DNA of 63,416 nt, counting the filler, from Reclinomonas americana ATCC 50394 (Eukaryota): assembly GCA_048213135.1 (NCBI GenBank). It is 11 parts of 4 records of this genome, joined end to end, with 100 filler letters (N's around TTAATTAATTAA, not from the genome) between each part and the next. Parts side by side here need not be neighbours in the genome. Positions count along the whole stretch, not along the records: positions 30,103 to 36,906 come from PS015765.1; 10 more parts are not named here. The stretch is one strand, 5' to 3'. The position numbers and the translations under genes were made by a program. Under the pieces are notes generated by a model. That model was not told the DNA's origin and ran no database searches. It saw nothing but the letters and a program-made list of their open reading frames with translations. Shown here piece after piece: positions 23,266-62,239 of this stretch; within the stretch, counting starts at the first letter, position 1; each line of letters opens with the position of its first letter.

Positions 23266-23309
23266 NNNNNNNNNNNNNNNNNNNNNNNNNNNNNNNNNNN
23301 NNNNNNNNN

Positions 23310-23321
23310 TTAATTAATTAA
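23310..23321. other. Artificial contig linker TTAATTAATTAA flanked by N runs (also at 27435, 30047, 36951, 39937, 41264, 45849, 52778, 56153, 62135)
   Basis: Identical 12-mer giving stops in all six frames, each flanked by ~44 N. Confidence 0.98.
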
Positions 23322-23749
23322 NNNNNNNNNNNNNNNNNNNNNNNNNNNNNNNNNNNNNNNNNNNNCCGATGCGATCGGGAATCACCACTGTGATCGGCAA
23401 CTTTGGCAGGCTTTTCCTATGACCGACAATACGGCAGATGCCGTAGTGCCCGGTTCCAAGAGCCGAGAGATTTGCCGTTTCCGATCAAGGATCACCGGCG
23501 CGAATCTCGTCATCAAGATGACCGACAACCGCCTCGAAAGTTCATAGTCTCAAGACATCGCATCGGGCGTGGCATCGACTTCCGATACCGGCTCCCGCAA
23601 ACCTTACCGTGACAACAAAAAGAGGGAGGCGGATTCCTGGTCCGCCTCCCTCAAGTCGTACTCTTTTGGAGGCTGAGAACCAAAGCCGGTTTCAACCAGA
23701 TGATAGATTACCAACACCATCGGCAGATGCTGTGAAGAAAATCACGAAT

Positions 23750-26603: not shown

Positions 26604-27110
26604 CAATGCCTCCAATTGAATTGGCCTATGCCGTGGCTGAGTCTTTTTGAATCAACCTGCATTATTGGTATTATTTTCGGGTATTTCAGATGGTGGAAAT
26701 GTTCACATAACTGAATAGAGTCGCAATATGTTGCATAGCGAGCACATGTGACGTTATTCACTCCGAGAGAATGTGATAAAATTCACGTATCGATGTTCTA
26801 AACATACATTACGTTGCGATCTCATCGAATAAGCACTCGGTGAAAACCTGAGCTCAAGATAAGTCTTCACCTGAGACCAGCGCTTGTTCCGGCCCGAGCG
26901 GACAAACAAGGCCGGGCGACATGCGACGCTCAAAGACTGCGTGGGAGCAACGCGTAGGCAGACGATCTGTCGGTCCGGCATCAGCGGCCGGTCGGAACCG
27001 CAGCGTCGTTCGCAATCTCCGAAGCGGTCGCAGAGACATAGCGGCCGGCAGATGCACTGGCGGCGATCACCAGACGGACATCTGCACGCGTCACCGCATC
27101 GACTGAAGCC

Positions 27111-27939
27111 TCAGCGCCAACTGCGGCGCCACAGCACGAAGACGCCGCAGGCGGCCAATTGCGCCGCGACCAGCAGATAGGACCAGTCGAAGCTCGCCGT
27201 CCGGCTGGCGATGAAGGCGAAGATGAGAGGACCGCAGAACGAGCCGGTGAAGCCGAAAAGGTTCGCCGCCGAGGTGACGTCGCCGATCTGCGTCGGCGGC
27301 GCCAGCCGCGCCAGCTCGGCCATGTAGACCCCGTTCCAGCCCAGCGACGTCGCGCCGATGAACGCGACCGAGCAATACAGGGCCCATGACNNNNNNNNNN
27401 NNNNNNNNNNNNNNNNNNNNNNNNNNNNNNNNNNTTAATTAATTAANNNNNNNNNNNNNNNNNNNNNNNNNNNNNNNNNNNNNNNNNNNNGAGACGCCGG
27501 CGATCGTTCCACCGAGGGGAACGCCGGCCTGCCGGATCGAGAAGATCAGGTTGCGATGGGTGGGCGGCGCCGTGCGCATCAGCATCGTGCTGCCCGCCGG
27601 ATTGTTCGGCGCGGTGCCGAGGCCGAGCACGAGCGCACCGGCGAAGCCGAGAGCGGCAATCGGCTGCGATAGCAGGATCAGGCCGAGGCACATCGCCGCC
27701 AGGCCGATCTGCAAGGTCCGGATCGGGCCGTGATGGTCGAGCATCGGGCCGCCGCAGGCCAGGCACCAGCAAATGCCGATCGAGACGGCGGAGGAGACGT
27801 AGCCGATGCTCTCCGGCGGCAGGTTCCAGCGCTGCGTCAGGATCGGGCCAAGGAGCGGAACAGCTGCGGCAGCGAAGGAGCTGACGACCTGCACGAGGAG
27901 CGTCGCGCTCAAGGCGCTCCCCCACAAAGGCAGCTTCAA
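27111..27939 (-). CDS. MFS transporter, split across a contig linker
   Basis: N-half 27491-27939 (RNLIFSIRQAGVPLGG) and C-half 27111-27390 (GWNGVYMAELARLAP) are on the same strand and in order. Confidence 0.8.
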
Positions 27940-28201
27940 CGCGATCCCCTCCCAGCGTCGTCACCGCGTGCTCCGGCCAGCGGACCGCCCTTCGACAGCG
28001 CCGTGCACGATTTCGGCCTATGCTGGTCTTCCGTGAATCTGCCGTTGCGGTCGAGGGCCAGGCACGCCTTGCCTGACCTGCAGGATTTGCATGCAATCGC
28101 TTCAGCATGGCTGTCGGCGATGGCCCGACAAGATCACTGCGCCCGAGCCAGAAAGGCTCGGGCGCTACAGATCTGCGACTAACGAGGCCGCGCCCCTGAG
28201 A

Positions 28202-29747
28202 TCAGGCGGGCTCGCCGCCCTTGGGCTGGATCGGCTTGGCGGGCGGCTGAGCAGCCTGCTTGGCGGTCCTGCCTGCAGCGTCTCCGAGCGAGGCGGCGAG
28301 AAGCGCCTGGGTCGGGTCGGCGCCCTTGAAACCGGCCTGGGACAGGATCTCGTCGAGGATCGGCTTCTGGGCGGTGAAGCTCAGCAGCTGGCTGGCGAGA
28401 TCGCCCATCGGGTTGCCGTTCGGCTCGCCCGCGCCGCCGCCGAGCGCGCCGGCCAGCCCGCCGGCGCTGAAGATGCGGATGTCGGAGATCTTCTCGATCG
28501 GCTTCATCGCCTGCGCCAGCGCCTGCGGCACGATCTCGACACGCGCCTTCGCCAGCTCGAAATCGATGATGTTGGCGGCGAGCGCGTTGCGCGCCTCGTT
28601 CTTGGCGCGCTCGGCCCNNNNNNNNNNNNNNNNNNNNNNNNNNNNNNNNNNNNNNNNNNNNNNNNNNNNNNNNNNNNNNNNNNNNNNNNNNNNNNNNNNN
28701 NNNNNNNNNNNNNNNNNNNNNNNNNNNNNNNNNNNNNNNNNNNNNNNNNNNNNNNNNNNNNNNNNNNNNNNNNNNNNNNNNNNNNNNNNNNNNNNNNNNN
28801 NNNNNNNNNNNNNNNNNNNNNNNNNNNNNNNNNNNNNNNNNNNNNNNNNNNNNNNNNNNNNNNNNNNNNNNNNNNNNNNNNNNNNNNNNNNNNNNNNNNN
28901 NNNNNNNNNNNNNNNNNNNNNNNNNNNNNNNCGCGAGCTGCTCGGCCTTGGCGCCTCGGCCGGTCTCGGCGGTCTTGTTGGCAATGTCGCGCTCCTGCGT
29001 CAGCTCGGCATCGCGCTGCTCGCGCTCGATGGTCAGGCGCCTGAGCGAGGCTTCGCGGTCCTTGGTCGCGATCTCGACCTCGTTGTCCCTGACGATCTGG
29101 TTGCGCTCGCGCTTGCGCTCCTCGGTGATCTTGGTGAGCGCGGTCAGGCCTTCTGCATCGAAGGTGTTGTTCGGGTTGAAATGCTTGATGTCGGTCTGGT
29201 CGAGCCTTGTCAGCGAGACCGATTCCAGTTCGAGCCCGTTCGACTGCAGGTCATGCGCAACCGCCGCCTGCACCGACTTCACGAATTCGGCGCGCTGTTC
29301 CTGCAGATCGCGCAGCGACATGGTCGCCGCGACCGAGCGCAGGCCGTCGACGAACTTTGCCTCGACCAGCGCCTTGAGGGCGTCGGCGTCGTTGGTCCTG
29401 TCGCCCAGGGTCTGGGCGGCGAGCGCGATGTTCTCCGCATCCGGCTTCACCCGGACATAGAACTCGGCGGTGATGTCGGCCCGCATCCGGTCCTTGGTGA
29501 TCAGCGACTCGTTCTCGGCGCGCTTGACCTCGAGGCGCAGCGTGCTGAGCGAAACCCAGGAATAGGAATGGAAGATCGGCAGGATGACAGAGCCGCCGTC
29601 GAGCACGACCTTCTTGCCGCCGAGTCCGGTGCGGACATAGGCCTTGTCGCGCGTCGCCCGCGTGTAGAGCGACGTCATGATGATGCCGATGACGACGATC
29701 GCCGCGACGATCACGCCGGCGATGATGCCCAGAGAAATGAAGTCCAT
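28202..29747 (-). CDS. yqiK: Flotillin/SPFH protein (YqiK-like), internal gap
   Basis: N-terminal TM, VRTGLGGKKVVLDGG, LITKDRMRAD, NGLELESVSLT, FNPNNTFDAEGLT, MKPIEKISDIRI. Confidence 0.9.
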
Positions 29748-29749
29748 GG

Positions 29750-30002
29750 TCAGCCCCTGCTGGAGTCAACGCTGCCGAGTTCCTGCGGCGCGGGAATGGC
29801 TTGGAACAGACCGTCCGAGCCGTCGACGATCACGACGACAGCCCCGGTCTCGATACGGTGGCCCGGCGCGGCCTTCGCGCGCAGGGTGTGGATGTTGTCG
29901 TAGCGGTCCTTCACACGCACCGCGCCGGGATGGCCCTGGTCGAGCGGTCCGATCGTGACGGTGCCGACGAGGCCGATGAAATCGGCCTGGCTCAACGCAT
30001 TG
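29750..30002 (-). CDS. YqiJ/DUF1449 NfeD-like OB-fold protein (3' part)
   Basis: SQADFIGLVGTVTIG...GHPGAVRVKDRYDNIH; immediately upstream of the flotillin gene. Confidence 0.8.
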
Positions 30003-30102
30003 NNNNNNNNNNNNNNNNNNNNNNNNNNNNNNNNNNNNNNNNNNNNTTAATTAATTAANNNNNNNNNNNNNNNNNNNNNNNNNNNNNNNNNNNNNNNNNN
30101 NN

Positions 30103-30760
30103 TGGCCTTCAGGCGATGGCCGGCCGCGATCGCCACGCCGAGCGCCGCACGGGCCTCCTCGGCGATCTTCTCGATCTCGCGCACGGCCTGCTGGGCGATG
30201 GCGGTGGGATTGGCCCCCTCGGCGGCATCGACCGCATTGTTGACCACGCCGGCGATGACGCGCCCGAGGCGGGCGAGGATACCTTCATTGGACATGGTGG
30301 TCTCCTTCTGGGAATGGAGGCCGGCCTGGACGCCGACCAGGACGTTGATCGACGTGCCGCTGAAGCACAAACGGGCTTCGGCAAAATCATCCCAACCGCC
30401 GCGATACCCATCCACCGAATAGGGGATGACGACGCGGCCACCGATGGTGGCGATGCTCAGGCTGTCGGGGCCCTTGACCGAGAACAGCTTGGAATCGAGC
30501 GGGATGTCGTCGATGGGGGCGCCGACCGCGCGCTTGCTGTGGTCGCGCAAGGCGAGCGTCGCCATGCGCGATGGCAGGCCGGTGCGGGCCCGGATTTCCT
30601 CATAGGCTTCCTCGTGAAGCGCGACGAGATTGGCGCCTTTGGTGCCGTCGAGGATCGCCAGGGCCTGACGATAGGCGACAAGCGTTCCATGGAGCGCCTC
30701 GCGGTCCTCGGGAGCTGGCGACAGAACCAGCGCCATGGTGGTGTGCGGCTTTCCGACCAT
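30103..30760 (-). CDS. PspA/IM30 protein (3'-partial) with an in-frame N-terminal TnpB-like WED/REC domain; internal PspA start at 30295
   Basis: PspA N-terminus MSNEGILARLGRVIAGVVNNAVDAAEGANP..QQAVREIE is preceded, with no stop, by 155 aa resembling the TnpB N-lobe; AAGGAG RBS at 30307-30302. Confidence 0.8.
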
Positions 30761-30795
30761 ACCGATAGTATAAAGCACTTCTTTAGTGCTTTCAA
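30761..30795 (-). promoter_or_regulatory. Sigma70 promoter (apparently leaderless) with inverted-repeat operator candidate
   Basis: TTGAAA(30795-90)-17 nt-TATACT(30772-67)-6 nt-ATG(30760); AAAGCACT-N5-AGTGCTTT at 30772-30792. Confidence 0.8.
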
Positions 30796-30883
30796 GAGCC
30801 GCTGGTTGCGCTGCCGCAGAAGGCCCTATTGCCGGTTGCTGCGCGGCGCCCCTGACGAGGAGCCCGGGCGAGCAAGCCGGTTG

Positions 30884-31591
30884 TCAGACAGCCAGGGCCG
30901 TCAGCAGGCGCGTGCGGTCGTCCTCGTCCTCGGCATCCCCGCTCAGCACGATCCGCCCGCGCTCGATCACGACGAAGCGGTCGGTCACCGAGAGCGCCTC
31001 GTGCACGTTCTGCTCGACCAGCAGCACGATGCAGCCGCGCTCGCGCAATTCGCGCACGATGGCAAAGACCTCGGCGACGATCATCGGCGCCAGTCCCTCG
31101 CTGGGCTCGTCGACCAGCACCAGCCTGGGCTCGCCGACCAGCACGCGCGCCATGGCGAGCATCTGCTGCTCGCCGCCCGACAGCGTCGTGCCGAGCTGGC
31201 GGCGGCGCTCGCCGAGGCGCGGAAAGCGGTCGTAGATCTGGTCGATGGCGGCGCGCTCGGCCTTGGCTGCCCGGCCGCGCACCTGCAGCAGGCCGAGCTG
31301 CAGGTTCTCCTCGACGGTGAGGCCGGGAAAGATGCGCCGGTCCTCGGGCACCAGCCCGACGCCGGAGAGGCAGATCCGGTCGGGCGCGAGCCCGTTCAGG
31401 GCTTGGCCGCCGAGCGTGATCGCGCCCTCGCTCGGTTTCACCCAACCGGCGATCGTCTTGAGCAGCGTCGTCTTGCCGACGCCGTTGCGGCCGAAGATGC
31501 CGATCACCTCGCCGGGCGCCGCCGAAAGGTCGATTCCCTGGATGACGTGGCTCAGGCCGTAATGGCTGTGCAGTCCGTTGATCGCGAGCAT
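30884..31591 (-). CDS. ABC transporter ATPase (LivF-like)
   Basis: GRNGVGKTT, LSGGEQQM, VDEPSEGLAP. Confidence 0.93.
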   Translation of the reverse strand: MLAINGLHSHYGLSHVIQGIDLSAAPGEVIGIFGRNGVGKTTLLKTIAGWVKPSEGAITLGGQALNGLAPDRICLSGVGLVPEDRRIFPGLTVEENLQLGLLQVRGRAAKAERAAIDQIYDRFPRLGERRRQLGTTLSGGEQQMLAMARVLVGEPRLVLVDEPSEGLAPMIVAEVFAIVRELRERGCIVLLVEQNVHEALSVTDRFVVIERGRIVLSGDAEDEDDRTRLLTALAV

Positions 31592-31592
31592 G

Positions 31593-32336
31593 TCAGTGAT
31601 GTCCGAAATAGGCGGCCTGCACCGCCGGGTCGGCCCGCACCATGGCGGGCGGTCCCTCGGCGAGCTTGCGGCCCTGATGCATGACGACGACATGGTCCGA
31701 GAGGTCCATGACGAGCCCGATATCGTGCTCGATCAGCAGCACGCTGACATCGCGGCTGAGTTCGCGCACCAGCTTCGCGGTGTCGGCCGTGTCGGCATGG
31801 CTCATGCCCTGCGTCGGCTCGTCGAGCAGCAGGATCTTCGGCTCCGATGCCAGGCAGACCGCGATCTCGAGCCGGCGCTGGTCGCCATGCGAGAGATTTC
31901 CGGCGAGTTCGTCGCGCTTGTGGCCGAGCTGGAAGCGCTCGAGCATCTCGCCGGTCTTGGCGAGCGCCCGGGTCGAGCGGCCGAGCGGGAGGAAAGCGCG
32001 CGCCGTCGGCTCCAGCACTTGCGCCGCCATGCGCAGGTTCTCGGCCACCGTCAGCTCGAAGAACAGGTTGGTGATCTGGAACGAGCGCGACAGCCCGGCC
32101 GCCTTGGTGCGCGCCGGCGAGGCGCCGGTCATGTCGACGCCGTCGATCAGGAGCTGGCCGGATTTCGGCTTGAGCGCCCCGCTGATCAGGTTGAACAGCG
32201 TCGACTTGCCGGCGCCATTCGGCCCGATCACGGTGGTGATCCGGTTGCGCTCTGCACTGAAGCTCACCTTGTCGACCGCCTTCAGGCCGCCAAAGGCGAT
32301 GCCCAGCTCGCGGATTTCGAGGACGGGACCGCTCAT
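31593..32336 (-). CDS. ABC transporter ATPase (LivG-like)
   Basis: GPNGAGKST, LSHGDQRRLE, LLDEP, VQAAYFG. Confidence 0.93.
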   Translation of the reverse strand: MSGPVLEIRELGIAFGGLKAVDKVSFSAERNRITTVIGPNGAGKSTLFNLISGALKPKSGQLLIDGVDMTGASPARTKAAGLSRSFQITNLFFELTVAENLRMAAQVLEPTARAFLPLGRSTRALAKTGEMLERFQLGHKRDELAGNLSHGDQRRLEIAVCLASEPKILLLDEPTQGMSHADTADTAKLVRELSRDVSVLLIEHDIGLVMDLSDHVVVMHQGRKLAEGPPAMVRADPAVQAAYFGHH

Positions 32337-33376
32337 GGCTTGGCACTTCCCGCTTCGAGCCGGGCCGGGGCGAAAGACGGCGCGGCCGGCTTTTGCGCAC
32401 CGGCGAGCAGGCGCTGCTCGATGCGCGGCCGGATGAAGCCGACCAGCCCCTTGGGCAGGAACATCACGCAGACCATGAAGATCAGGCCGATCACGATGAG
32501 ATGGTGCTCGGTCCAGCTGCCGATGATCGACTTCAGCAGGACGAGTAGCACCGAGCCGTAGATCGCGCCGATCAGCGTGCCGACACCGCCGAGGATGACC
32601 GAGATCACCGCATTGCCGGACGTCACGAAGAACATCAGCTCCGGCGAGACGAAGCCGCGCAGCATCGGATAGAGCGCGCCCGAAAGCCCGGCGATCAGCC
32701 CGGCCAGCACATAGGAGAACATCCGCGCCCGCCAGACCGAATAGCCGAGGAAGGGCACGCGCTTCTCATTCGCCTTGAGCGCCGTCAGCACCCGCCCGAA
32801 CGGCGTGTCGAGCAGATAGGCGGTGATTCCGTACAGTCCCATGATGATCGCCAGCACGACCAGGAAGAAGCCGACCGGATTGCCGGCCGAGACCGAGACC
32901 GGGCCGAAGCCGATCTCGATGACGGGGATGCCGATCATGCCGTCGGAGGCGCCGAGCTCGCGGGTGTTGTAGACGACCTTGGCGACGACCTGCGCCAGCC
33001 CGAAGGTGATCAGCGCGAAATAGACGCCGCGCACCCGGTTGGCGGTCAGGCCGCCGACGATCGAGGCGATCAGCGTCGCCCCGCCCGCCGCCGCCATGGC
33101 GAGCCAGAAGGACGGCACCTTCAGCAGGGTCAGCGCCGAGACATAGGCGCCGATGCCGAAATAGAGCGCCTGTCCCAGCGAGAGCGCGCCGGAATAGCCG
33201 AGCAGCAGGTCAACAGAGAGGGCGAGGCCGGCGAAGATCAGCGCCTCCGTGCCGAGGCGAAGGTAGAAGGTGTCGCCGCTGGCGGCGCCGATCGCGGCGA
33301 GCGCTAGCGCTGCCGTGACGAGGACAAGGGCGAGCAGATGGCTCGCGCGCATCGACAATGTCAGCCGGTCACGCAT
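32333..33376 (-). CDS. ABC permease (LivM-like)
   Basis: LLLGYSGALSLGQ, RGVYFALIT, TPFGR, ILGGVG. Confidence 0.93.
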   Translation of the reverse strand: MRDRLTLSMRASHLLALVLVTAALALAAIGAASGDTFYLRLGTEALIFAGLALSVDLLLGYSGALSLGQALYFGIGAYVSALTLLKVPSFWLAMAAAGGATLIASIVGGLTANRVRGVYFALITFGLAQVVAKVVYNTRELGASDGMIGIPVIEIGFGPVSVSAGNPVGFFLVVLAIIMGLYGITAYLLDTPFGRVLTALKANEKRVPFLGYSVWRARMFSYVLAGLIAGLSGALYPMLRGFVSPELMFFVTSGNAVISVILGGVGTLIGAIYGSVLLVLLKSIIGSWTEHHLIVIGLIFMVCVMFLPKGLVGFIRPRIEQRLLAGAQKPAAPSFAPARLEAGSAKP

Positions 33377-34259
33377 GGCCGAGCCTCCCGAACAGGCCCT
33401 GCGGGCGGAAAACGAGGAAGGCGACCATGGTCCCGAACACGATCGGATCGGTCCAGACCGGCGAGATCACCAGGCTGGCCAGCGCCTGCACCTGCGTCAG
33501 CAGCAGGCCGGCGACGACCGCGCCCCAGATCGAGCCCATGCCGCCGACGATGACGACGGTGAAGGCGAGCAGGATGAAGTCGCGCCCCATGGTCGGGAAC
33601 ACCGAATAGATCGGCGCGAGCAGGACGCCGGCAAGACCTGCGAGCGCCACGCCGAAGGCGAAGGTGCCGGCATAGACCAGCGCCACCGGCACGCCGAGCG
33701 AGGCCGCCATATTGCGGTCGAAGGCGGCCGCCCGCACCATCGCGCCGAGACGGGTACGATAGACGACATAGGCGACGCCGTTGACGATCGCCGCGCCTAC
33801 TACGATCAGGAAGAGCCGGTAGTTCGGCACGATGATGCCGGCGAGTTCGGTCGCGCCCGGAATGGGCGTCGGCGGACGCTGGGTGTTGGGGCCGAAGGCG
33901 ACCTTGAGCAGGTCCTCGACCACGAGCGCGAGGCCGAAGGTGACGAGCAGCGTGGTGACGTGCCGATCCCGGCTGTCGAAGACCGGCCGGATCAGCAGGC
34001 GCTCGGCCGCCATGCCGAGTGGCACCATCAGGACCGGCACCAGCACGAGCAGGAACCAGAAGCTGATCCCGGCCGCACCCAGCGCGAGGGCCGCATAGGC
34101 GCCGATGGCGTAGAACTCGCCATGGCTCATGTTGATGACGTCGAGCATGCCGAAGATGATCGTCAGCCCGAGGGCGACCAGCACCACGGCGACCCCGAGC
34201 GCGAGCCCGTTGACGACCTGCGGCGCCAGCACGAATTGGAGGTAGTCGAGGGCATTCAT
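33369..34259 (-). CDS. ABC permease (LivH-like)
   Basis: ALGLTIIFGMLDVINMSHG, RTRLG, VVIVGGMGS, RPQGLFG. Confidence 0.93.
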   Translation of the reverse strand: MNALDYLQFVLAPQVVNGLALGVAVVLVALGLTIIFGMLDVINMSHGEFYAIGAYAALALGAAGISFWFLLVLVPVLMVPLGMAAERLLIRPVFDSRDRHVTTLLVTFGLALVVEDLLKVAFGPNTQRPPTPIPGATELAGIIVPNYRLFLIVVGAAIVNGVAYVVYRTRLGAMVRAAAFDRNMAASLGVPVALVYAGTFAFGVALAGLAGVLLAPIYSVFPTMGRDFILLAFTVVIVGGMGSIWGAVVAGLLLTQVQALASLVISPVWTDPIVFGTMVAFLVFRPQGLFGRLGHA

Positions 34260-34323
34260 GTCATGTGCTTTCGCGAGGGCGGTGTGACCCCTCCCATGTG
34301 AAGGGAGGGGTCGGCGCCTGTCC

Positions 34324-35505
34324 TCAGAACCTTGTGCAGGCGTCGGGGCCGATCGCCTTGTCGGCGTCGACCTTGTCGATGATGTCGAACTTGCCCTTGG
34401 CGACGCGCACCACATACATCGGCTGCATCGCCTGGTGATCGCCGGCGCGGATGGTCTTGGCGCCCTGCGGAGTCTGCCAGCTCAGCCCGCGCAGCGCCTC
34501 GCGCACCTTGTCGGTCTCGGTCGAGCCCGCCTTCTCGACGGCGGCCTTGTAGGCGAAGAGCAGGCCGTAGCTGTCGGCGCCGTAGAGATCGGGATCGGCC
34601 TTGTTGGCCGCGCGGAAGGCTGCGACGAACGCCTTGTTCTCCGGTGTGTCGATCTGCGGGGAATAGCCGACGCCGGTGGCGAAGCCCTCGGCGGCCTGGC
34701 CGATCGCGCCGATGTTCTGCGAGGTCACGGTGCCGGAGGCGCCGACGACCTGCAGGTTGGTGAGCAGGCCGAAATCCTGCAGCTGGGTCAGCAGCCTGAC
34801 CGTGTCGTTGCCGGCGACGGAGGTGTAGAGCACCTGCGGCCGTGAAGCGCGAATCTGGCCGAAATACTGGGTGTAGTCCTTGGAATCGAGCGGCGCGAAC
34901 ACCTCGCCGCCGGTCGGCGCACCGGATTTCTCAGCGCTGCTCTTGAAAGCGGCGACGGTCGAGCGGCCCATCTCATAGTCGGGGCCGAGATAATAGACCT
35001 TGGCCTTCGGCTTCTCCTTGGCGAGCCAGGCGGCGAGCGCGACCGATTGCTGCTCGGCGCGCGCGTTCACGCGGAACATGTTCGGCGAGCATTTGTCGGT
35101 GGTGATCGAGTCGGCGAAGGAGACCGTCGTCGCCGCGAGCTTGGCGTTGCGCTCGGCCAGCTGGGCGACAGCGAGCGTCGAACCGGAATTGACCGTGCCG
35201 GTGAGGAAGTCGACCTTCTCGACCTGGAACAGCTTCTCGGCCTTCTGCACGGCGACGGCCGGGTTGGCCTCCTCGTCCTCGAAGACCAGGCTGACCTGCC
35301 TGCCGGCGATGCCGCCCCCTGCGTTGATCTCCTTGGCGGCGAGCTCCAGGCCCCAGCGCACCTGCTGGCCGATCGGGGTATAGGTGCCCGAGAGCGGCGT
35401 GACGACGCCGATCTTGATCGGGCCGCTCTGAGCGAGCGCACCGTCGGTGAGCGCCGTCGCAGCGAGCAGCCCGGCGGCGACAGTGAGATATCCGGTCGTC
35501 TTCAT
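34324..35505 (-). CDS. ABC substrate-binding protein (LivK/PBP1 type)
   Basis: Signal peptide, IKIGVVTPLSG, EINAGGGIAGR. Confidence 0.92.
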   Translation of the reverse strand: MKTTGYLTVAAGLLAATALTDGALAQSGPIKIGVVTPLSGTYTPIGQQVRWGLELAAKEINAGGGIAGRQVSLVFEDEEANPAVAVQKAEKLFQVEKVDFLTGTVNSGSTLAVAQLAERNAKLAATTVSFADSITTDKCSPNMFRVNARAEQQSVALAAWLAKEKPKAKVYYLGPDYEMGRSTVAAFKSSAEKSGAPTGGEVFAPLDSKDYTQYFGQIRASRPQVLYTSVAGNDTVRLLTQLQDFGLLTNLQVVGASGTVTSQNIGAIGQAAEGFATGVGYSPQIDTPENKAFVAAFRAANKADPDLYGADSYGLLFAYKAAVEKAGSTETDKVREALRGLSWQTPQGAKTIRAGDHQAMQPMYVVRVAKGKFDIIDKVDADKAIGPDACTRF

Positions 35506-35553
35506 GGTCGTTCCCTCGGTTCTGGTTGTTGTTCTACGGTGTCGGTCGGGCGA

Positions 35554-35579
35554 ACCCGCACGGGCATGCCCGTGCGGGT
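35554..35579. repeat. Perfect 26-bp intergenic palindrome; further stem-loops at about 34287-34312 and 39406-39441
   Basis: ACCCGCACGGGCATGCCCGTGCGGGT is self-complementary; the 39406 element has a 13-bp stem. Confidence 0.75.
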
Positions 35580-35590
35580 CATTTGCCGGC

Positions 35591-36394
35591 TCATCGGCCG
35601 GTGAACTGCGGCGCGCGCTTGGCGTGGAAGGCCTCGACGCCTTCGCGGAAATCGTCGGACTGGCGCAGGCGGCTATAGCAGTGCCCTTCCAGCTCGATCG
35701 CGATCGCCAGCGTCGAATCCTCGGTGTCGTTGAGCAGCTTCTTGGCGGTGCGCTGGGCGATCGGCGAGAAGGAGCGCAGCTCGTCGACCAGCCGGTCGGT
35801 CGCGGCCTCGAGCTCGGCATCGGGCACGCATTCGGTGGCGATGCCCCAGTCGAGCGCCTGCTTGCCGGAGATGCGCTTGGAGCGCATCACGATGTCCTTG
35901 GTCCGGGTGATGCCGACGATCTTCTGCAGGCGAGCCGAGCCGCCCGAGCCGGGGATCTGCCCCAGCTTCTGCTCCGGCAGCGCGTATTGGCAGGTCTCAG
36001 AGACGATCCGGAAATCGCAGGCGAGCGAGATCTCGAAGCCGACGCCGAAGGTGTAGCCGCGATTGGCGACGATCACCGGCTTGGAGCAGCGCGCCGGCGC
36101 GGCGATGTTCCAGGCGAGCTTGGAGACATGCTCGGGCGAGGCCTCCAGGAAGCCCTTGATATAGCCGCCGGAGGAGAAGTGCTCGCCGACGGCCCGCAGC
36201 ACGATGATGCGCACGCGATCGTCCTCGTCGAGCGCCTCGAACACCTTGCGCAGCTGGTCGCGCTGAGCCATCGCGACCGTGTTCATCGGCGGCCGGTCGA
36301 GGATGATGTCGGCGCGCTCGCGGGCAGGATCGATCTCGACGCGGAAGCCGTCGAGGCCGGTGAGGCTGGCGTGGATCGGGGTGACTGCGTTCAT
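35591..36394 (-). CDS. Crotonase-fold enzyme, probable 2-oxoglutaroyl-CoA hydrolase (HmfE-like)
   Basis: FSSGG, FGVGFEISLACDFRI, LPEQKLGQIPGSGGS; context with CoA ligase and Mo-hydroxylase. Confidence 0.75.
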   Translation of the reverse strand: MNAVTPIHASLTGLDGFRVEIDPARERADIILDRPPMNTVAMAQRDQLRKVFEALDEDDRVRIIVLRAVGEHFSSGGYIKGFLEASPEHVSKLAWNIAAPARCSKPVIVANRGYTFGVGFEISLACDFRIVSETCQYALPEQKLGQIPGSGGSARLQKIVGITRTKDIVMRSKRISGKQALDWGIATECVPDAELEAATDRLVDELRSFSPIAQRTAKKLLNDTEDSTLAIAIELEGHCYSRLRQSDDFREGVEAFHAKRAPQFTGR

Positions 36395-36423
36395 GGCTGT
36401 GGCTCTCGATTTCAGGGTTGGGG

Positions 36424-36906
36424 TTATTCGGCGGCGAGGTCGGGTCGCTCGGGCTCGTACTCGCCGGCGACGAGCTGGCGGCGCAGCAGCTTGCCGACCG
36501 GTGATTTCGGGATCGCCTTGACGAACTCGTAGCGGCGCGGACGCTTGAAATTGGCGAGGCCGGAGAGCTTGCAGTGCCGGTCGAGCTCCTCGGCTGATAC
36601 GGCCGAGGCGCGCTGCACGAAGGCGACGACGATCTTGCCCCAGCGCTCGTCGGGCAGGCCGACCACGGCCACCTCCGACACGGCCGGATGCAGCGACAGG
36701 CAGCTCTCGATATCGACCGGCGAGACGTTCTCGCCGCCGGTGATGATCATGTCGTCGACGCGGCCGGTGACGAAGAGGTCCCCGTCCTCGTCGAAATAGC
36801 CGGTGTCGCCGGTGAAGTACCAACCGTCGCGCAGCGACTTGGCGTCGGCTTCGGGCCGGCGCCAGTAGCCTTCGAAGGCCTCGTCGCTGGCGGCGAGGGC
36901 GATGAT
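36424..36906 (-). CDS. Acyl-CoA synthetase 3' part (probable furoyl-CoA ligase, HmfD-like)
   Basis: GWYFTGD, GRVDDMIITGGENV, PDERWG, PKSPVGK. Confidence 0.8.
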   Translation of the reverse strand: MIALAASDEAFEGYWRRPEADAKSLRDGWYFTGDTGYFDEDGDLFVTGRVDDMIITGGENVSPVDIESCLSLHPAVSEVAVVGLPDERWGKIVVAFVQRASAVSAEELDRHCKLSGLANFKRPRRYEFVKAIPKSPVGKLLRRQLVAGEYEPERPDLAAE

Positions 36907-37006
36907 NNNNNNNNNNNNNNNNNNNNNNNNNNNNNNNNNNNNNNNNNNNNTTAATTAATTAANNNNNNNNNNNNNNNNNNNNNNNNNNNNNNNNNNNNNN
37001 NNNNNN

Positions 37007-39522: not shown

Positions 39523-40437
39523 TCAGCGACCCAGCCGCGCCACGCTGCGGAACTCGCTCGGCGCCACCGAGCAATGGTCGCGGAAGAAGCGCGTGAAGTG
39601 CGCCGGCGCGCTGAAGCCAAGCCGGTCGCCGATCGCGCTGAAGCTCTCCTCGCCGTCGACGACGGCGCCGACCGCGAGCTCGACCTTCAGCACATTGAGA
39701 AAGACATGCGGCGTCACGCCGGTCGAAGTCTCGAACATCCTGAAGAAATGTGCCCGCGACAGGCCGGCCTCGCTGGCCAGCCGCTCGATCGAAAGCGACG
39801 CGGCGGGATTGGAGCGCATCAGTGAAATCGCCCGGCGCACCCGGAAATCGACCGCATTCGAGCGCGCGATCTCACGCAGCGAGGCGCCGATCNNNNNNNN
39901 NNNNNNNNNNNNNNNNNNNNNNNNNNNNNNNNNNNNTTAATTAATTAANNNNNNNNNNNNNNNNNNNNNNNNNNNNNNNNNNNNNNNNNNNNCGATCATC
40001 AGCTCGGAGAGCAACTCCTCCTGCCGGCGGTTGGCGCCGGGCTCGTGCACCATCTCGGCGGCGAGATCGAGCGCGGTCTGGCGGATATAGGCGCTGACTT
40101 CGCCGGCGGAGTGCTCGAAGAAGCCGGGCGAGCCACTCGCCGCCCAGTTCGGCCGGAAGCTGCGCAGCCACTCCGGCTCGATATAGAGCGCCAGGATCAG
40201 CGCGTTCTTGCGGGAGGGATCGTGGACGTAGGCATGCGTCTCCCACGCATTGACCAGCACGGCGAGATCGTCGGTCAGCGGCGCGACATGGTCCCCGACC
40301 AGGAACTGCGTGTCGTCGCCGTCGACCTTGAGCAGGACATGGCAATGCGGATGCGCGTGCCGGACGAGGCTGCGATCCATGTCGAGCAGCGCCACCCGGC
40401 CGAAAGCTCCGTGCGCGATGCGCAGGGCATCCGACAT
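39523..40437 (-). CDS. AraC-family regulator, split by a linker
   Basis: Cupin HAHPHCH at the N-terminus; LSRAHFFRMF and LGFSAPAHFTRFF HTH at the C-terminus. Confidence 0.9.
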
Positions 40438-41219: not shown

Positions 41220-41319
41220 NNNNNNNNNNNNNNNNNNNNNNNNNNNNNNNNNNNNNNNNNNNNTTAATTAATTAANNNNNNNNNNNNNNNNNNNNNNNNN
41301 NNNNNNNNNNNNNNNNNNN

Positions 41320-45778: not shown

Positions 45779-45913
45779 TTGTACACTTGTTCACTTTTCT
45801 CACANNNNNNNNNNNNNNNNNNNNNNNNNNNNNNNNNNNNNNNNNNNNTTAATTAATTAANNNNNNNNNNNNNNNNNNNNNNNNNNNNNNNNNNNNNNNN
45901 NNNNCCAACGGTC

Positions 45914-52733: not shown

Positions 52734-52832
52734 NNNNNNNNNNNNNNNNNNNNNNNNNNNNNNNNNNNNNNNNNNNNTTAATTAATTAANNNNNNNNNNN
52801 NNNNNNNNNNNNNNNNNNNNNNNNNNNNNNNN

Positions 52833-55800
52833 NGTGTGCGCGCGTGATCTCATCTGTGAATCGTGCAGTCCGGTGGAGGGACCACTGTGTGGCGCGGTGT
52901 TTGTGGTGCCCACCGAGGCCAGCAATCACAAGGGATTGCCGCACACACTGGAGCACTTGAGTTGCGTGCTGTTCTTCTCCTGTGGAGCTCTCTCCCGTTG
53001 TCTGACTGACTGACTGCGAGCGCGCGTGTGAGCAGTCTTCATGGGCAGCAAGAAGCATCCTCATCGAGGTTATCTCGACAACCTGGCGGTGCTTTGCGGC
53101 ACGTCGGGCACCAATGCGTGGACTGCGGAGGACCACACGGCGTACACGATATACACGGCTGGCGCTGATGGTCTGCTCTCTCTCCTGTCTCTTTTCTCTC
53201 TTGAGCCCTGGATCTCACCACCCTCCGTCGACTGTGTGGCAGGCCTGCTGACCATTACGCCAGTGTTCCTCGACCATGTGTTGAACCCGGTGCTCAGCGA
53301 TCAGGCGTTCACCACGGAGGTGTATCATGTCGACGGAGAGGGCCGACAGCAGGGTGTGGTGTTTTGCGAGATGGAGGGACGGTGTGTGCTGTGCGCCTGC
53401 GTCTCCGGAGAAGAGATATCTGATGATGTGCTTTGTCAGCGAGAACACGGAGGACGACCTGCATGAGAACGCGTTGCGCCAGTTGCTGTACCCGAACACC
53501 GGCTACGCCTTCGACACTGGCGGCCTCACGCCCAGCATTGCAACGCTCTCGAACGAGGAGATTCGCGAGTATCATCGGCGCTTCTATCGCCCCGCGAACC
53601 TCTCCATCATTGTGTTGGGTGCGGTGCCGCTTGATGCGTTCTTTGAGTGTCTGTCGACGGTGGACTTTGAGAGCAGCGCGCAGCGGTGCGTCAGCCCCCC
53701 TGTGCATTTCTTGTGGCGTGGCGACTCATTTTTATCGTCGACGAAAAGCAGATCGGCGAGCGACGACTCGGCCGGCAACCCCGGTGTGGCTGCGGCGTGG
53801 AGCGCACCCATCCCACCGGTGGTGCTGCCGCATGTAGGGTCGCCAGTAGAGTGTCATTTTCCGTCGCAAGGTCACTCGCCACAATCGCGATCACTTTTAC
53901 GCACACCATGCTCATGAAACGCGTTGTGTCTGCTGCAGACGAGGAAGTGGGATCGGTGACGTTTGCGTGGCCGGGTCCTCCGCTGCACGACTTGGCCACG
54001 CAGATGGCTCTCGAGTGCATGCTGTGGTATCTGGAGGACACGTCTGCGAGCCCACTCCGACAGGAGTTTGTGGAGTGTGCGAGTCCAATCGCCAACGATG
54101 TGTCGTGGCACGTATTCGAGTATCCGCAGACCGCATTCAGTGTGTCGTTCAGGTTTGTTCCTTTCTTGTTTGTGGTGGATGGTATGCGCTTTCTCTTTTC
54201 GGTCTAGCTCACTCGTAATGCAGCGGTGTGCGCACCGGCAAGTGTGGCGATGACATTGACTCAAGTCGCGCGAGCGACTGTGAGAGTGACGAAGATGGTT
54301 CTGACGAGGGTGGTGGTGGCGCAATGTCGGAGGATGACGTCACGCTGGAATCGTACCTGTTGCGTCCACGGCCATGCGTAGCGTGCGTTTCTTCGATTGA
54401 TGACACGTTGGTGCCGCACAGCGAGGGGCAGCGGCTGTACGAACGCTTTGCGGCTGTGCTACGCCGAGTCCGCGACGAGGGTTTCCCCGACGGCGTCATG
54501 GCCAAGGCTGTCAGTCGCCTTCGGTGTGTGTTGGAGGTTGCACGCACGCATGCATACTCGCTCCACGTTTCCTGATGTTTCGTTCTGGTGCCTCAGCATC
54601 AAGCACCTGGAGTCGATGGAAAAGAGCCCGTTCTCCTCGGCCACCGATATTCTCCTCCCGGAGTTGATCTTCCCCGACGACGTGACCACTCCCAGTTTCG
54701 TCGTCGATTGTCGTTTCCCTCACCACCCTCGAGTGAGAGAAGGATCTCTCATGCGTCCTGCATTTCCCGCAGTCGGCACTCGCATGGCGAGTGTGGTGGA
54801 ACTGTTGGACGACCTCGAGCACCGGCCGAGCTCGTTCTGGGTGAACTTTTTGGAGACCTGGTTCCTGTCGACTCCGGTACGTGTCTGCGTGCCGCAATCC
54901 CTTTGACTCTCTGTATTCTCATCCCGTGTGGAGCAGCATCAACTAAAGATGATTCCCGACGCTCGGCGCGCGCGCACACTCGAGGAGCACACTGCGGAGC
55001 AGGACACTGAGCGGCGAAGTGCTCTTGGTGCGCTGTCTCGCTTGTGGATGTTCTCCTCCTCTCTCTCTCTTATGCATTCCGTGCCTGGCGCAGGTCCGGA
55101 TGGATTGACGGCATGCGCCGAGCGAGTGCGCGAGGCACTGGAGCACAACCGACCGCGCCTCGATTCCTCTGACCTGGAGCGTATTCACTCCCAAGCCGAC
55201 CGGCGCGCTCATCCCGTGTCGGAACTCCCTTCACGCGTGCAGGTATGGATCATGCATTTCTCGCTGTCTCTTTTGCGCGTGAACCGCTCCGCTGACTCGT
55301 GCGGTGCAGATGATCGAGGATCCAGCCAGGGCACCATTCCCGATCCAGGCAGTGGCTCTCGGCACCACACAATTCGTGCATGCGCGCATGCTGTTCCATC
55401 TCGGTGATCTGCCCGACCATCTGCGTCCGTTGCGCACTCTGCATTCTCTCGTCGACCTGCTGCACTTGTGTTGATCGTTGTCGTTGTCGTTGTTGTCGCA
55501 TGACCACCACGCAGAGCTCTGGTTCTCTTCCAGGAGTTGTTCATGGCCTGCGATTTGCGCGATGCCGATGGCGTGATGCTGCCGTACACTGACGCTGTGC
55601 GCCAGTTGGCACAAGACGTTGCGGTGTATTGCCTTGCGTGCGTGTTTCGATTCCGCTGACTTGAAGTATTTGGGTTCGAATAGACGGTTGCACAATCATG
55701 CTCTGTCGGTCAGGGTGGTGGCACGTTTGGGTGCACGCATTTTGGTGAAGTGCTTTTCATGTACTTTACAGCCGAACCCCGCAAGTGCGTGCTCCTGCTC

Positions 55801-56108: not shown

Positions 56109-56208
56109 NNNNNNNNNNNNNNNNNNNNNNNNNNNNNNNNNNNNNNNNNNNNTTAATTAATTAANNNNNNNNNNNNNNNNNNNNNNNNNNNNNNNNNNNN
56201 NNNNNNNN

Positions 56209-62089: not shown

Positions 62090-62239
62090 TNNNNNNNNNN
62101 NNNNNNNNNNNNNNNNNNNNNNNNNNNNNNNNNNTTAATTAATTAANNNNNNNNNNNNNNNNNNNNNNNNNNNNNNNNNNNNNNNNNNNNCGGAATGCAG
62201 AATTGGTGAGCTCCTAGTGAAATAGAGAGGACCATACAA

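Follow-up and report, generated by a model that had tools for sequence, protein, structure and literature searches.

A probable leaderless promoter with an operator-like spacer dyad ahead of a gene joining a TnpB-derived WED-REC module to PspA

The window analyzed here is a 63,416-nucleotide stretch of DNA composed of concatenated contigs (Reclinomonas americana ATCC 50394, GCA_048213135.1), and the element under study is a short segment of its minus strand located directly ahead of an open reading frame (ORF) in which a TnpB-derived WED-REC module is fused to a YjfJ-like PspA. The best explanation for this segment is that it serves as the core promoter for an envelope-stress operon of three genes, encoding the WED-REC/PspA fusion, YqiJ, and a flotillin. 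We consider it very probable that the promoter functions as a leaderless one, and the inverted repeat, or dyad, that fills its spacer is probably a protein operator. A promoter combined with an operator is a known kind of element; what is novel is an apparently guide-free WED-REC module carried on PspA and provided with its own dyad.

On the minus strand, the element reads C-TTGAAA-GCACTAAAGAAGTGCTT-TATACT-ATCGGT-ATG, and AAAGCACT-N5-AGTGCTTT (30792-30772), within it, is a perfect 8-base-pair (bp) inverted repeat of the form 8-N5-8. An earlier, sequence-only reading had described TTGAAA, a 17-nucleotide (nt) spacer, TATACT, and six further nucleotides before an ATG, together with a perfect inverted repeat touching both hexamers, and every one of these elements is present where it was placed. 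The same reading had put the expected transcription start site (TSS) on the A of the ATG, and a start at or next to the ATG is supported both by the geometry of related loci and by two RNA contigs, whose first positions, 30747 and 30763, bracket it. In a consensus scan, this was the sole sigma-70-like site between positions 27000 and 34000, matching 10 of 12 positions (shuffled sequences gave a mean of 0.6 sites). The whole window held four promoter matches of at least 10 of 12 positions, representing three distinct sites, against 1.3 in shuffles, and 91 perfect 8-bp inverted repeats with loops of 3 to 9, against around 10 in mononucleotide shuffles. Either a promoter or a repeat is unremarkable on its own, but their exact superposition beside a start codon and, above all, the conservation of this arrangement exceed chance.

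Conservation was assessed in 39 fusion loci: that of the window, 24 close loci from Bosea, Labrys, Pleomorphomonas, and related metagenome-assembled genomes, with fusions of 367-371 amino acids (aa), and 14 distant loci with 33-46% identity. An order-level sample of 401 genomes contributed 18 genuine fusion loci, of which 10 were new, and a class-level sample, also of 401 genomes, contributed four more; one weak order-level match (L055, in G293) was an arginine-rich spurious frame and was excluded from all counts. The TTGAAA hexamer is invariant in the window and the 24 close loci and is kept in 10 of the 14 distant ones, the variants being TTATAA (L045), TTGAAG (L052), CCTAAA (L053), and TTGTAA (L054). 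The aligned -10 hexamer conforms to TAnnnT in 34 of the 39 loci; the exceptions are TAGTGC in L053 and L054, TATATC in L019, TATATG in L056, and TAAGTA in L059. All 39 spacers measure 17-18 bp. The start codon, ATG in 37 loci and GTG in two (L004 and L058), lies 5-7 nt past the -10 in 38 loci (6-7 nt in the close ones), and this short distance leaves no room for a Shine-Dalgarno sequence. Even the most distant fusion, L059 from G548, with 33% identity, has TTGAAA and a perfect GGGACAA-ATA-TTGTCCC dyad. The likeness of these hexamers and spacers to the rhizobial sigma-70 consensus, CTTGAC-N17-CTATAT in the accessible text of PMC2873474, strongly supports assignment of the promoter to the housekeeping sigma-70 type, and, judged by geometry, the message for the full-length fusion qualifies as leaderless.

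The dyad is conserved along with the hexamers. Among the 25 close sequences, window included, it forms part of a 26-nt block, C-TTGAAAGCA[C/A][C/T]AA[A/T/G]G[A/C/G]AGTG[C/A][C/T]T-TA, in which most columns hold 1.0-2.0 bits, compared with 0-0.8 bits in the 40 nt upstream. Synonymous divergence (dS) in the adjacent coding region is saturated between some of these loci (1.2-2.1), so the persistence of the block argues that it is under selection. A spacer dyad occurs in all 39 fusion loci, the complete -35/dyad/-10 architecture extends to all 14 distant ones, and the register in which the arms contact the two hexamers is the same in every locus. Between lineages, the cores change on both arms together, giving GCAC/GTGC, GGAC/GTCC, ACAC/GTGT, GTGAC/GTCAC, and GTA/TAC. 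In 35 aligned promoters, 87.5% of the arm cells are complementary, as opposed to 31-51% after a shift of one arm by 1-3 columns; four of the eight arm pairs contain double changes (11 cells), and the covariation score, 0.115, compares with 0.045 in shuffles and was reached by none of 500. In 30 of the 39 loci, the dyad is perfect over 6 bp or more. That selection maintains the symmetry of the dyad is strongly supported by these alignments.

The site also appears to be specific to the fusion family. One check proposed in the sequence-only reading was to compare the region upstream of fusions with that of plain pspA genes: the motif accompanies 39 of 39 fusions and none of the 12 loci whose plain PspA homologues were the nearest among the same 401 genomes (28-35% identity), all 12 of which have Shine-Dalgarno-led starts directly behind another gene. 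In the four genomes behind L001, L007, L009, and L020, the motif was found once per genome, with matches at one mismatch no more frequent than those of a reversed-pattern control. The exact GCAC-type palindrome occurs in seven of the 401 order-level genomes, at five fusion promoters and two unrelated sites, and the control pattern occurs in five genomes. The unrelated palindromes (L106 in G228 and L110 in G015), with a frequency like that of the control pattern, have as their contexts the region before a tape-measure-like prophage gene and a low-GC genome with no fusion nearby. Neither the 12 distant loci surveyed for neighbors nor the contig of the window contains a regulator or transcription factor gene as a constant neighbor, and the flanks of these 12 loci vary, with Nramp, a methyltransferase, xanthine dehydrogenase, CobT, and an MFS transporter among others.

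Transcript data offer a weak to moderate hint that transcription starts within a few nucleotides of the ATG and that the operon is expressed strongly and as a separate unit. Because all four runs consist of assembled contigs, they do not suffice to locate a 5′ end. In the RNA run X1, a 3739-nt contig with a depth of 110 starts at 30747, and the depth is 0 over 30796-30872 and 3-4 (range 0-6) on the upstream ATP-binding cassette (ABC) gene. In X14, also RNA, a 324-nt contig with a depth of 3.8 starts at 30763. No loose ends are listed at either contig start, and in X3, a probable DNA run, the contig continues through the promoter. The end of an X2 contig at 30801 was considered as a TSS and set aside as uninformative, since related loci cease to be alike at this point and several differing X2 contigs overlap there.

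Turning to the protein, the contig that bears the promoter spans 30103-36906, and the fusion ORF, which begins at 30760, is truncated by the linker at 30103, so its full form was taken from a 99% identical locus of Bosea vestrisii (L001). There, the fusion is 368 aa long and matches PspA/IM30 from around residue 160; PF04012 scores 29 bits on it, under the cut-off of 33.9, and 34-65 bits on 22 of 27 PspA-matching representatives. A profile of the fusion matched only PspA/Vipp1 structures (E 3.5e-11), in keeping with the ESCRT-III-like helical hairpin of PspA/IM30. For the first 155 residues, a Pfam scan found no family. A phmmer search with this N-domain against 1.84 billion representatives gave 79 matches, of which 44 were scanned against Pfam: 27 carry PspA_IM30 behind the matched region, and seven, which bear OrfB_IS605 and/or TNB, are genuine TnpB proteins or fragments of them (P0059, P0061, P0068, P0072-P0074, and P0077). 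P0058 was placed with the TnpB matches by sequence likeness only. These TnpB matches have E-values of 1e-5 to 4e-4 and align through their first 130-140 residues; one of them, P0068, aligns with solved Cas12f/TnpB chains only in its RuvC/TNB part.

Structure prediction leads to the same family. The AlphaFold2 model of the N-domain, with a predicted local distance difference test (pLDDT) score of 88.9, consists of a strand at residues 7-13, three helices, and then a six-stranded sheet. Its Foldseek ranks 1-13 are all TnpB, Cas12f, or Fanzor, headed by 8ex9_A, a WED-REC-only model of ISDra2 TnpB, with probabilities of 0.63-1.00 (at least 0.96 in 11 of the 13), template modeling (TM) scores of 0.37-0.63, and E-values of only 4e-3 to 4e-2. 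In the accessible part of PMC10097598, the WED-REC cleft of TnpB is described as holding the duplex of the transposon-associated motif (TAM), and the topology given there matches the N-domain. The ratio of nonsynonymous to synonymous divergence (dN/dS) in the N-domain, 0.05-0.22 in 11 pairs, indicates that it is translated and constrained. Sequence matches and the predicted fold therefore support the assignment of the N-domain as a TnpB-derived WED-REC module. The sequence-only reading had taken the N-terminal extension for a real, expressed domain, a view that the dN/dS values, the phmmer matches to TnpB, and the WED-REC structures at the top of the Foldseek ranking all sustain; its premise of a TnpB-PspA fusion holds in the form of a RuvC-less WED-REC module on a YjfJ-like PspA. 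No fusion scanned has a match to OrfB_IS605 or TNB, PspA/IM30 following the WED barrel, and a search of 30103-31400 against Rfam at E<=1 gave no match and hence no guide (omega) RNA among the curated families. A predicted complex of two N-domain copies scored 0.29 (mark 0.32), a value that counts neither for nor against a dimer.

Other RuvC-less WED-REC proteins were seen among the matches, namely P0076, with two tandem copies of the module, P0080, with a C-terminal match to a winged helix-turn-helix (HTH), and P0020, in which an unrelated part of around 350 aa includes a transmembrane-like stretch. Single-protein metagenome scans with P0020 and P0031 for WED-REC joined to another C-terminal part returned no relative, and a phylum-level genome search with P0020 re-found known fusions and nothing else. 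A full-text literature search and the accessible main texts of PMC9239133 and PMC11237479, with supplementary tables outside the search, yielded no PspA-TnpB fusion and no operator of this kind; the terms TnpB, transposase, and OrfB are absent from the main text of the latter.

We propose that the leaderless housekeeping-type promoter would give rise to the full-length fusion and that the dyad would be the operator of a dimeric repressor serving this promoter alone. Given that the dyad lies across both hexamers and that the spacer of 17-18 nt is optimal, occupancy should exclude RNA polymerase, and we regard a repressor site, as opposed to an activator site, as fairly likely. The likeliest occupant would be the full-length protein that the operon itself encodes. 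One of the operon's products is favored because the site is unique per genome, is confined to the gene family and diverges with it, and has no conserved regulator gene nearby; among the three products, WED-REC is favored because it alone descends from a structure that contacts duplex DNA. The module would correspond to the TnpB region that grips the TAM DNA duplex, and the PspA coiled coil could pair two copies of it. Under membrane stress, the PspA part would assemble on the membrane and draw the DNA-binding module off the operator, and a Shine-Dalgarno sequence and AUG at the junction could allow the same mRNA to give plain PspA as the bulk effector. We would give the whole chain, autoregulation included, slightly less than an even chance. 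That the binder is the fusion's own N-domain is a tentative proposal drawn from sequence comparison, and the manner of binding suggested for it, as a REC-mediated dimer on two TAM-like half-sites without a guide RNA, is plausible. More speculative still is the general claim that a RuvC-less, guide-free WED-REC module may read duplex DNA sequence-specifically and, mounted on PspA, may act as a one-component, stress-released autorepressor of its own leaderless promoter, with one mRNA supplying both the regulator and plain PspA.

Several observations weigh against this proposal. We know of no precedent for a bare WED-REC module that binds DNA alone, and neither TnpB nor its known repressor derivatives, the TldRs, bind DNA stably unless a guide RNA and a RuvC-like lobe are present. 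As for the transcript, assembled RNA contigs cannot fix the 5′ end, the X14 contig extends 3 nt upstream of the ATG, and an X2 metatranscriptome contig reaches 30801, although X2 may contain DNA and several strains. In L059, around 40 nt with no obvious Shine-Dalgarno sequence separate the -10 from the ATG; the geometry is thus not universal, and this locus may not be leaderless. The dyad itself is imperfect in nine of the 39 loci: the Pleomorphomonas clade, L015, and L045 have 1-3 mismatches between the arms, and those of the Pleomorphomonas clade sit mid-arm. The repeat in its fully perfect form is restricted to close Bosea relatives, with 1-3 mismatches in Labrys, Pleomorphomonas, and some other Bosea loci. 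Three positions in the center are conserved like the arms, an uncommon property in a simple symmetric operator, and the AAA...TTT part of the symmetry is partly dictated by the ends of the hexamers. Finally, the operator type tracks the protein tree (a quick tree of 38 proteins in which the L059 row is mis-framed), as vertical inheritance alone would make it do.

The dyad could instead be read by a dedicated factor encoded elsewhere in the genome, which we consider less likely. Most palindromic operators are recognized by HTH or ribbon-helix-helix (RHH) proteins, an arrangement of 8-N5-8 over 21 bp suits ordinary dimeric repressors, and a WED-REC module that binds DNA without a guide would be unprecedented. 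Moreover, plain pspA operons carry a separate small gene whose product has an N-terminus that looks RHH-like by eye, and such operons can own a classical regulator; this RHH reading, however, finds no support in Pfam, PDB sequences, or Foldseek. The lack of a conserved regulator gene beside the fusion, in the 12 distant loci and in the contig of the window, also speaks against an unlinked factor, as does the uniqueness of the site, which would call for a factor encoded far away for the sake of a single promoter. The operator cores, in addition, diverge alongside the fusion lineages.

It is rather improbable that there is no separate operator at all and that the conservation reflects a constraint inherent in the promoter, for instance spacer shape or use of an alternative sigma factor like RpoH, with the Bosea repeat arising partly as a by-product of the A- and T-rich hexamer ends. 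The -35 of RpoH promoters is CTTGAAA, and this sequence is invariant in the close loci although TTGACA would serve sigma-70 equally well; the outer AAA and TTT of the arms lie within or abut the hexamers, the center is conserved too, and the repeat is imperfect in nine of 39 loci. What such a constraint does not predict is the joint change of inner arm positions, seen in at least four lineages (GGAC/GTCC, ACAC/GTGT, GTGAC/GTCAC, and GTA/TAC), and the -10 is without the C-rich motif of sigma-32 promoters.

A hairpin acting as nucleic acid, whether a terminator, a processing site, or a relic of the subterminal hairpin that IS200/IS605-type elements carry at their left end, just upstream of their genes, is very improbable. 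The descent of the N-domain from tnpB would be in keeping with it, and the measured covariation fits a hairpin as well as a dyad. Nonetheless, transcription is inferred to start downstream of the repeat, which would thus be outside this mRNA, and the RNA depth in X1 is zero just upstream. The upstream genes vary in identity and orientation, so that a terminator role could not be shared; a stem in the Pleomorphomonas clade would break midway; and the fixed register between -35 and -10 in 39 of 39 loci points to a promoter-linked function of the duplex. Least probable of all is a compressed site for the heat-shock repressor HrcA, for, although the Bosea arms share AGCACT/AGTGCT with the controlling inverted repeat of chaperone expression (CIRCE; consensus TTAGCACTC-N9-GAGTGCTAA), both would govern stress genes, and canonical CIRCE sites are present in the same genomes, the distance between the shared hexamers is 5 nt here, against 11 nt in CIRCE (8-N5-8, not 9-N9-9), the canonical 9-N9-9 sites number 1-4 per genome at up to three mismatches (L102-L105 in G001-G004; the best with 0-1, and no control matches), and the GGAC, ACAC, GTGAC, and GTA cores depart from the consensus.

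The genes behind the promoter fit an operon. In L001, the fusion, yqiJ, and flotillin genes are contiguous and overlap or abut, with the fusion stop overlapping the yqiJ start. Flotillin Pfam matches lie beside the fusion in 10 of 12 distant loci, and only the trio of fusion, yqiJ, and flotillin recurs. At the junction between WED-REC and PspA, a Shine-Dalgarno sequence (AAGGAGA, AGGGAGA, or AAGAGG) precedes an ATG by 5-7 nt in 25 of 25 close loci; GGAG-type motifs stand ahead of the junction ATG in the nine distant loci where a pattern located the junction, and a junction Met was found by eye in four more. A second start that would give plain PspA from the same mRNA as the leaderless fusion is, from these sequences, likely.

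Directly upstream of the plain pspA homologues, L090-L101 contain a gene for a protein of around 170 aa, whose N-terminus, KSVPLSVRVSDEDAAFLA..TPSEKLRALL, looks RHH-like by eye and whose remainder is a helical bundle (model pLDDT 79.6). The RHH reading is an impression from sequence only, with no match in Pfam, PDB sequences, or Foldseek, and the protein shows no homology to the N-domain of the fusion (hhalign probability 0.1). Near the promoter, the Pleomorphomonas clade has a GCAACC or GCAATC motif immediately next to the -35, whereas the Bosea loci have it around 9 nt farther upstream. This motif may represent an UP-like element or an additional site. One Labrys locus only, L008, has a second 8-bp inverted repeat, CTTCCTTG-N7-CAAGGAAG, that overlaps the -35 and is probably due to chance. 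The contigs of the window are joined by N44-TTAATTAATTAA-N44 linkers, additional N runs lie within genes, and neighbors across a linker are no evidence of synteny. Coordinates are collected in Table 1.

Table 1. Features of the promoter region, lineage forms of the dyad core, neighboring genes, and linkers of the window.
Feature	Position or loci	Strand	Remarks
-35 hexamer TTGAAA	30790..30795	-	Preceded by C at 30796; consensus scan and conservation
Spacer GCACTAAAGAAGTGCTT	between the hexamers	-	17 nt
-10 hexamer TATACT	30767..30772	-	Consensus scan and conservation
Discriminator ATCGGT (30766-30761, 6 nt) and ATG of the fusion (30760-30758)	30758..30766	-	Expected TSS at A30760 or around 3 nt either way
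Left arm of dyad AAAGCACT	30785..30792	-	Overlaps the last 3 bases of the -35
Center of dyad AAAGA	30780..30784	-	Two A positions and G conserved; 1.8-2.0 bits at 3 of 5 positions
Right arm of dyad AGTGCTTT	30772..30779	-	Final T is the first base of the -10
GCAACC/GCAATC motif	30803-30808; also L011, L015, L017, L020-L024		Promoter flank
Dyad core AAAGCAC/GTGCTTT	GCAC-type lineage		
Dyad core AAAGGAC/GTCCTTT	L048, L049, L051, L056; partly L057		
Dyad core AAAACACC/GGTGTTTT	L047		
Dyad core AAGTGAC/GTCACTT	L052		
Dyad core AAAGTA/TACTTT	L058		
Dyad core GGGACAA/TTGTCCC	L059		
N-terminal 155 codons of fusion, TnpB-derived WED-REC module without RuvC/TNB	30296..30760	-	phmmer, AlphaFold2, Foldseek, dN/dS
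PspA/IM30 (YjfJ-like) part of fusion	30103..30295	-	First 64 codons, cut at contig end 30103; Pfam PspA_IM30
Internal Shine-Dalgarno AAGGAGA (30307-30301) and ATG (30295-30293)	30293..30307	-	WED-REC/PspA junction
YqiJ oligonucleotide-binding (OB) fold fragment	29750-29995	-	Pfam; next contig piece
Flotillin/band-7 gene	28179-29747	-	Pfam; next contig piece
ABC-transporter ATPase gene	30884..31693	-	Upstream, outside the unit; stop 123 nt before fusion ATG
N44-TTAATTAATTAA-N44 linkers	23266-23365, 27391-27490, 30003-30102, 36907-37006, 39893-39992, 41220-41319, 45805-45904, 52734-52833, 56109-56208, 62091-62190		

If the general claim is true, it would represent a second route by which TnpB has been domesticated into transcription control, independent of RNA guides, and a new branch of the superfamily alongside Cas12, Fanzor, and TldR. 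Should the fusion bind its own operator, the TAM cleft of the ancestor of TnpB and Cas12 would have been exapted as a stand-alone DNA-binding domain that works without RNA, and envelope-stress control of the PspA type could be wired directly to DNA in bacteria without PspF. Even with another binder, the element is compact and testable, being a promoter of 29 bp whose dyad varies by lineage and for which specificity variants are available in nature, and it would be useful for mapping how the widespread PspA-YqiJ-flotillin module is regulated in Hyphomicrobiales. It would also be a clear example from nature in which a single mRNA combines a leaderless start with an internal Shine-Dalgarno-led one.

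Several known systems share some of these features. The lambda cI gene, when transcribed from PRM, has a leaderless transcript, and an operator overlaps the core promoter of this same gene. The present promoter resembles PRM in a transcript that would start at the AUG and in an operator-like site placed over the core promoter of the candidate regulator's gene; in contrast to cI, the candidate is not an HTH protein, and the mRNA would be polycistronic with an apparent internal Shine-Dalgarno-led start. A dyad between -35 and -10 is likewise found at MerR promoters, in which over-long spacers of 19-20 bp are untwisted by the activator. The spacers of the fusion promoters, at 17-18 bp in all loci, are not of this over-long kind, and because of this length, repression by occlusion is a simpler reading than MerR-like activation. 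The likeness to CIRCE and HrcA lies in an inverted repeat with an AGCACT/AGTGCT core beside a stress-gene promoter, whereas the format here is 8-N5-8 with lineage-specific cores, and canonical 9-N9-9 CIRCE coexists in the same genomes.

In E. coli, PspA holds its own operon off until membrane stress by sequestering PspF, the sigma-54 activator. Our proposal is similar in that a PspA-family protein would silence its own operon until the membrane is stressed, but the fusion promoter is of the sigma-70 type, and the part that contacts DNA would be fused to PspA itself, making a one-component system. Operons of YjfJ-like PspA with band-7/flotillin, YqiJ, and a separate small upstream partner are described in the accessible texts of PMC11237479 (Ravi et al. 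2024) and PMC9239133. The CesT/Tir (YjfI)-PspA (YjfJ) operons in the accessible part of PMC11237479 have the same effectors, namely YjfJ-like PspA, YqiJ/YuaF, and band-7/flotillin, but their small partner is separate, whereas here, a fused WED-REC module and a leaderless dyad promoter are found. Perhaps the nearest comparison is with the TldRs, which, in the portion of the preprint accessible (bioRxiv 10.64898/2026.09.22.753285), are likewise host-domesticated TnpB derivatives that keep WED and REC and, as the fusion possibly does, act at promoters. According to the same portion, the TldRs differ in retaining a degenerate RuvC lobe and in using a guide RNA at a TAM and guide-matched target (bioRxiv 10.64898/2026.09.22.753285). 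The fusion, for which no RNA family was detected, has instead a WED-REC part alone, of around 150 residues, a palindrome as its candidate site, and PspA as the protein to which it is joined.

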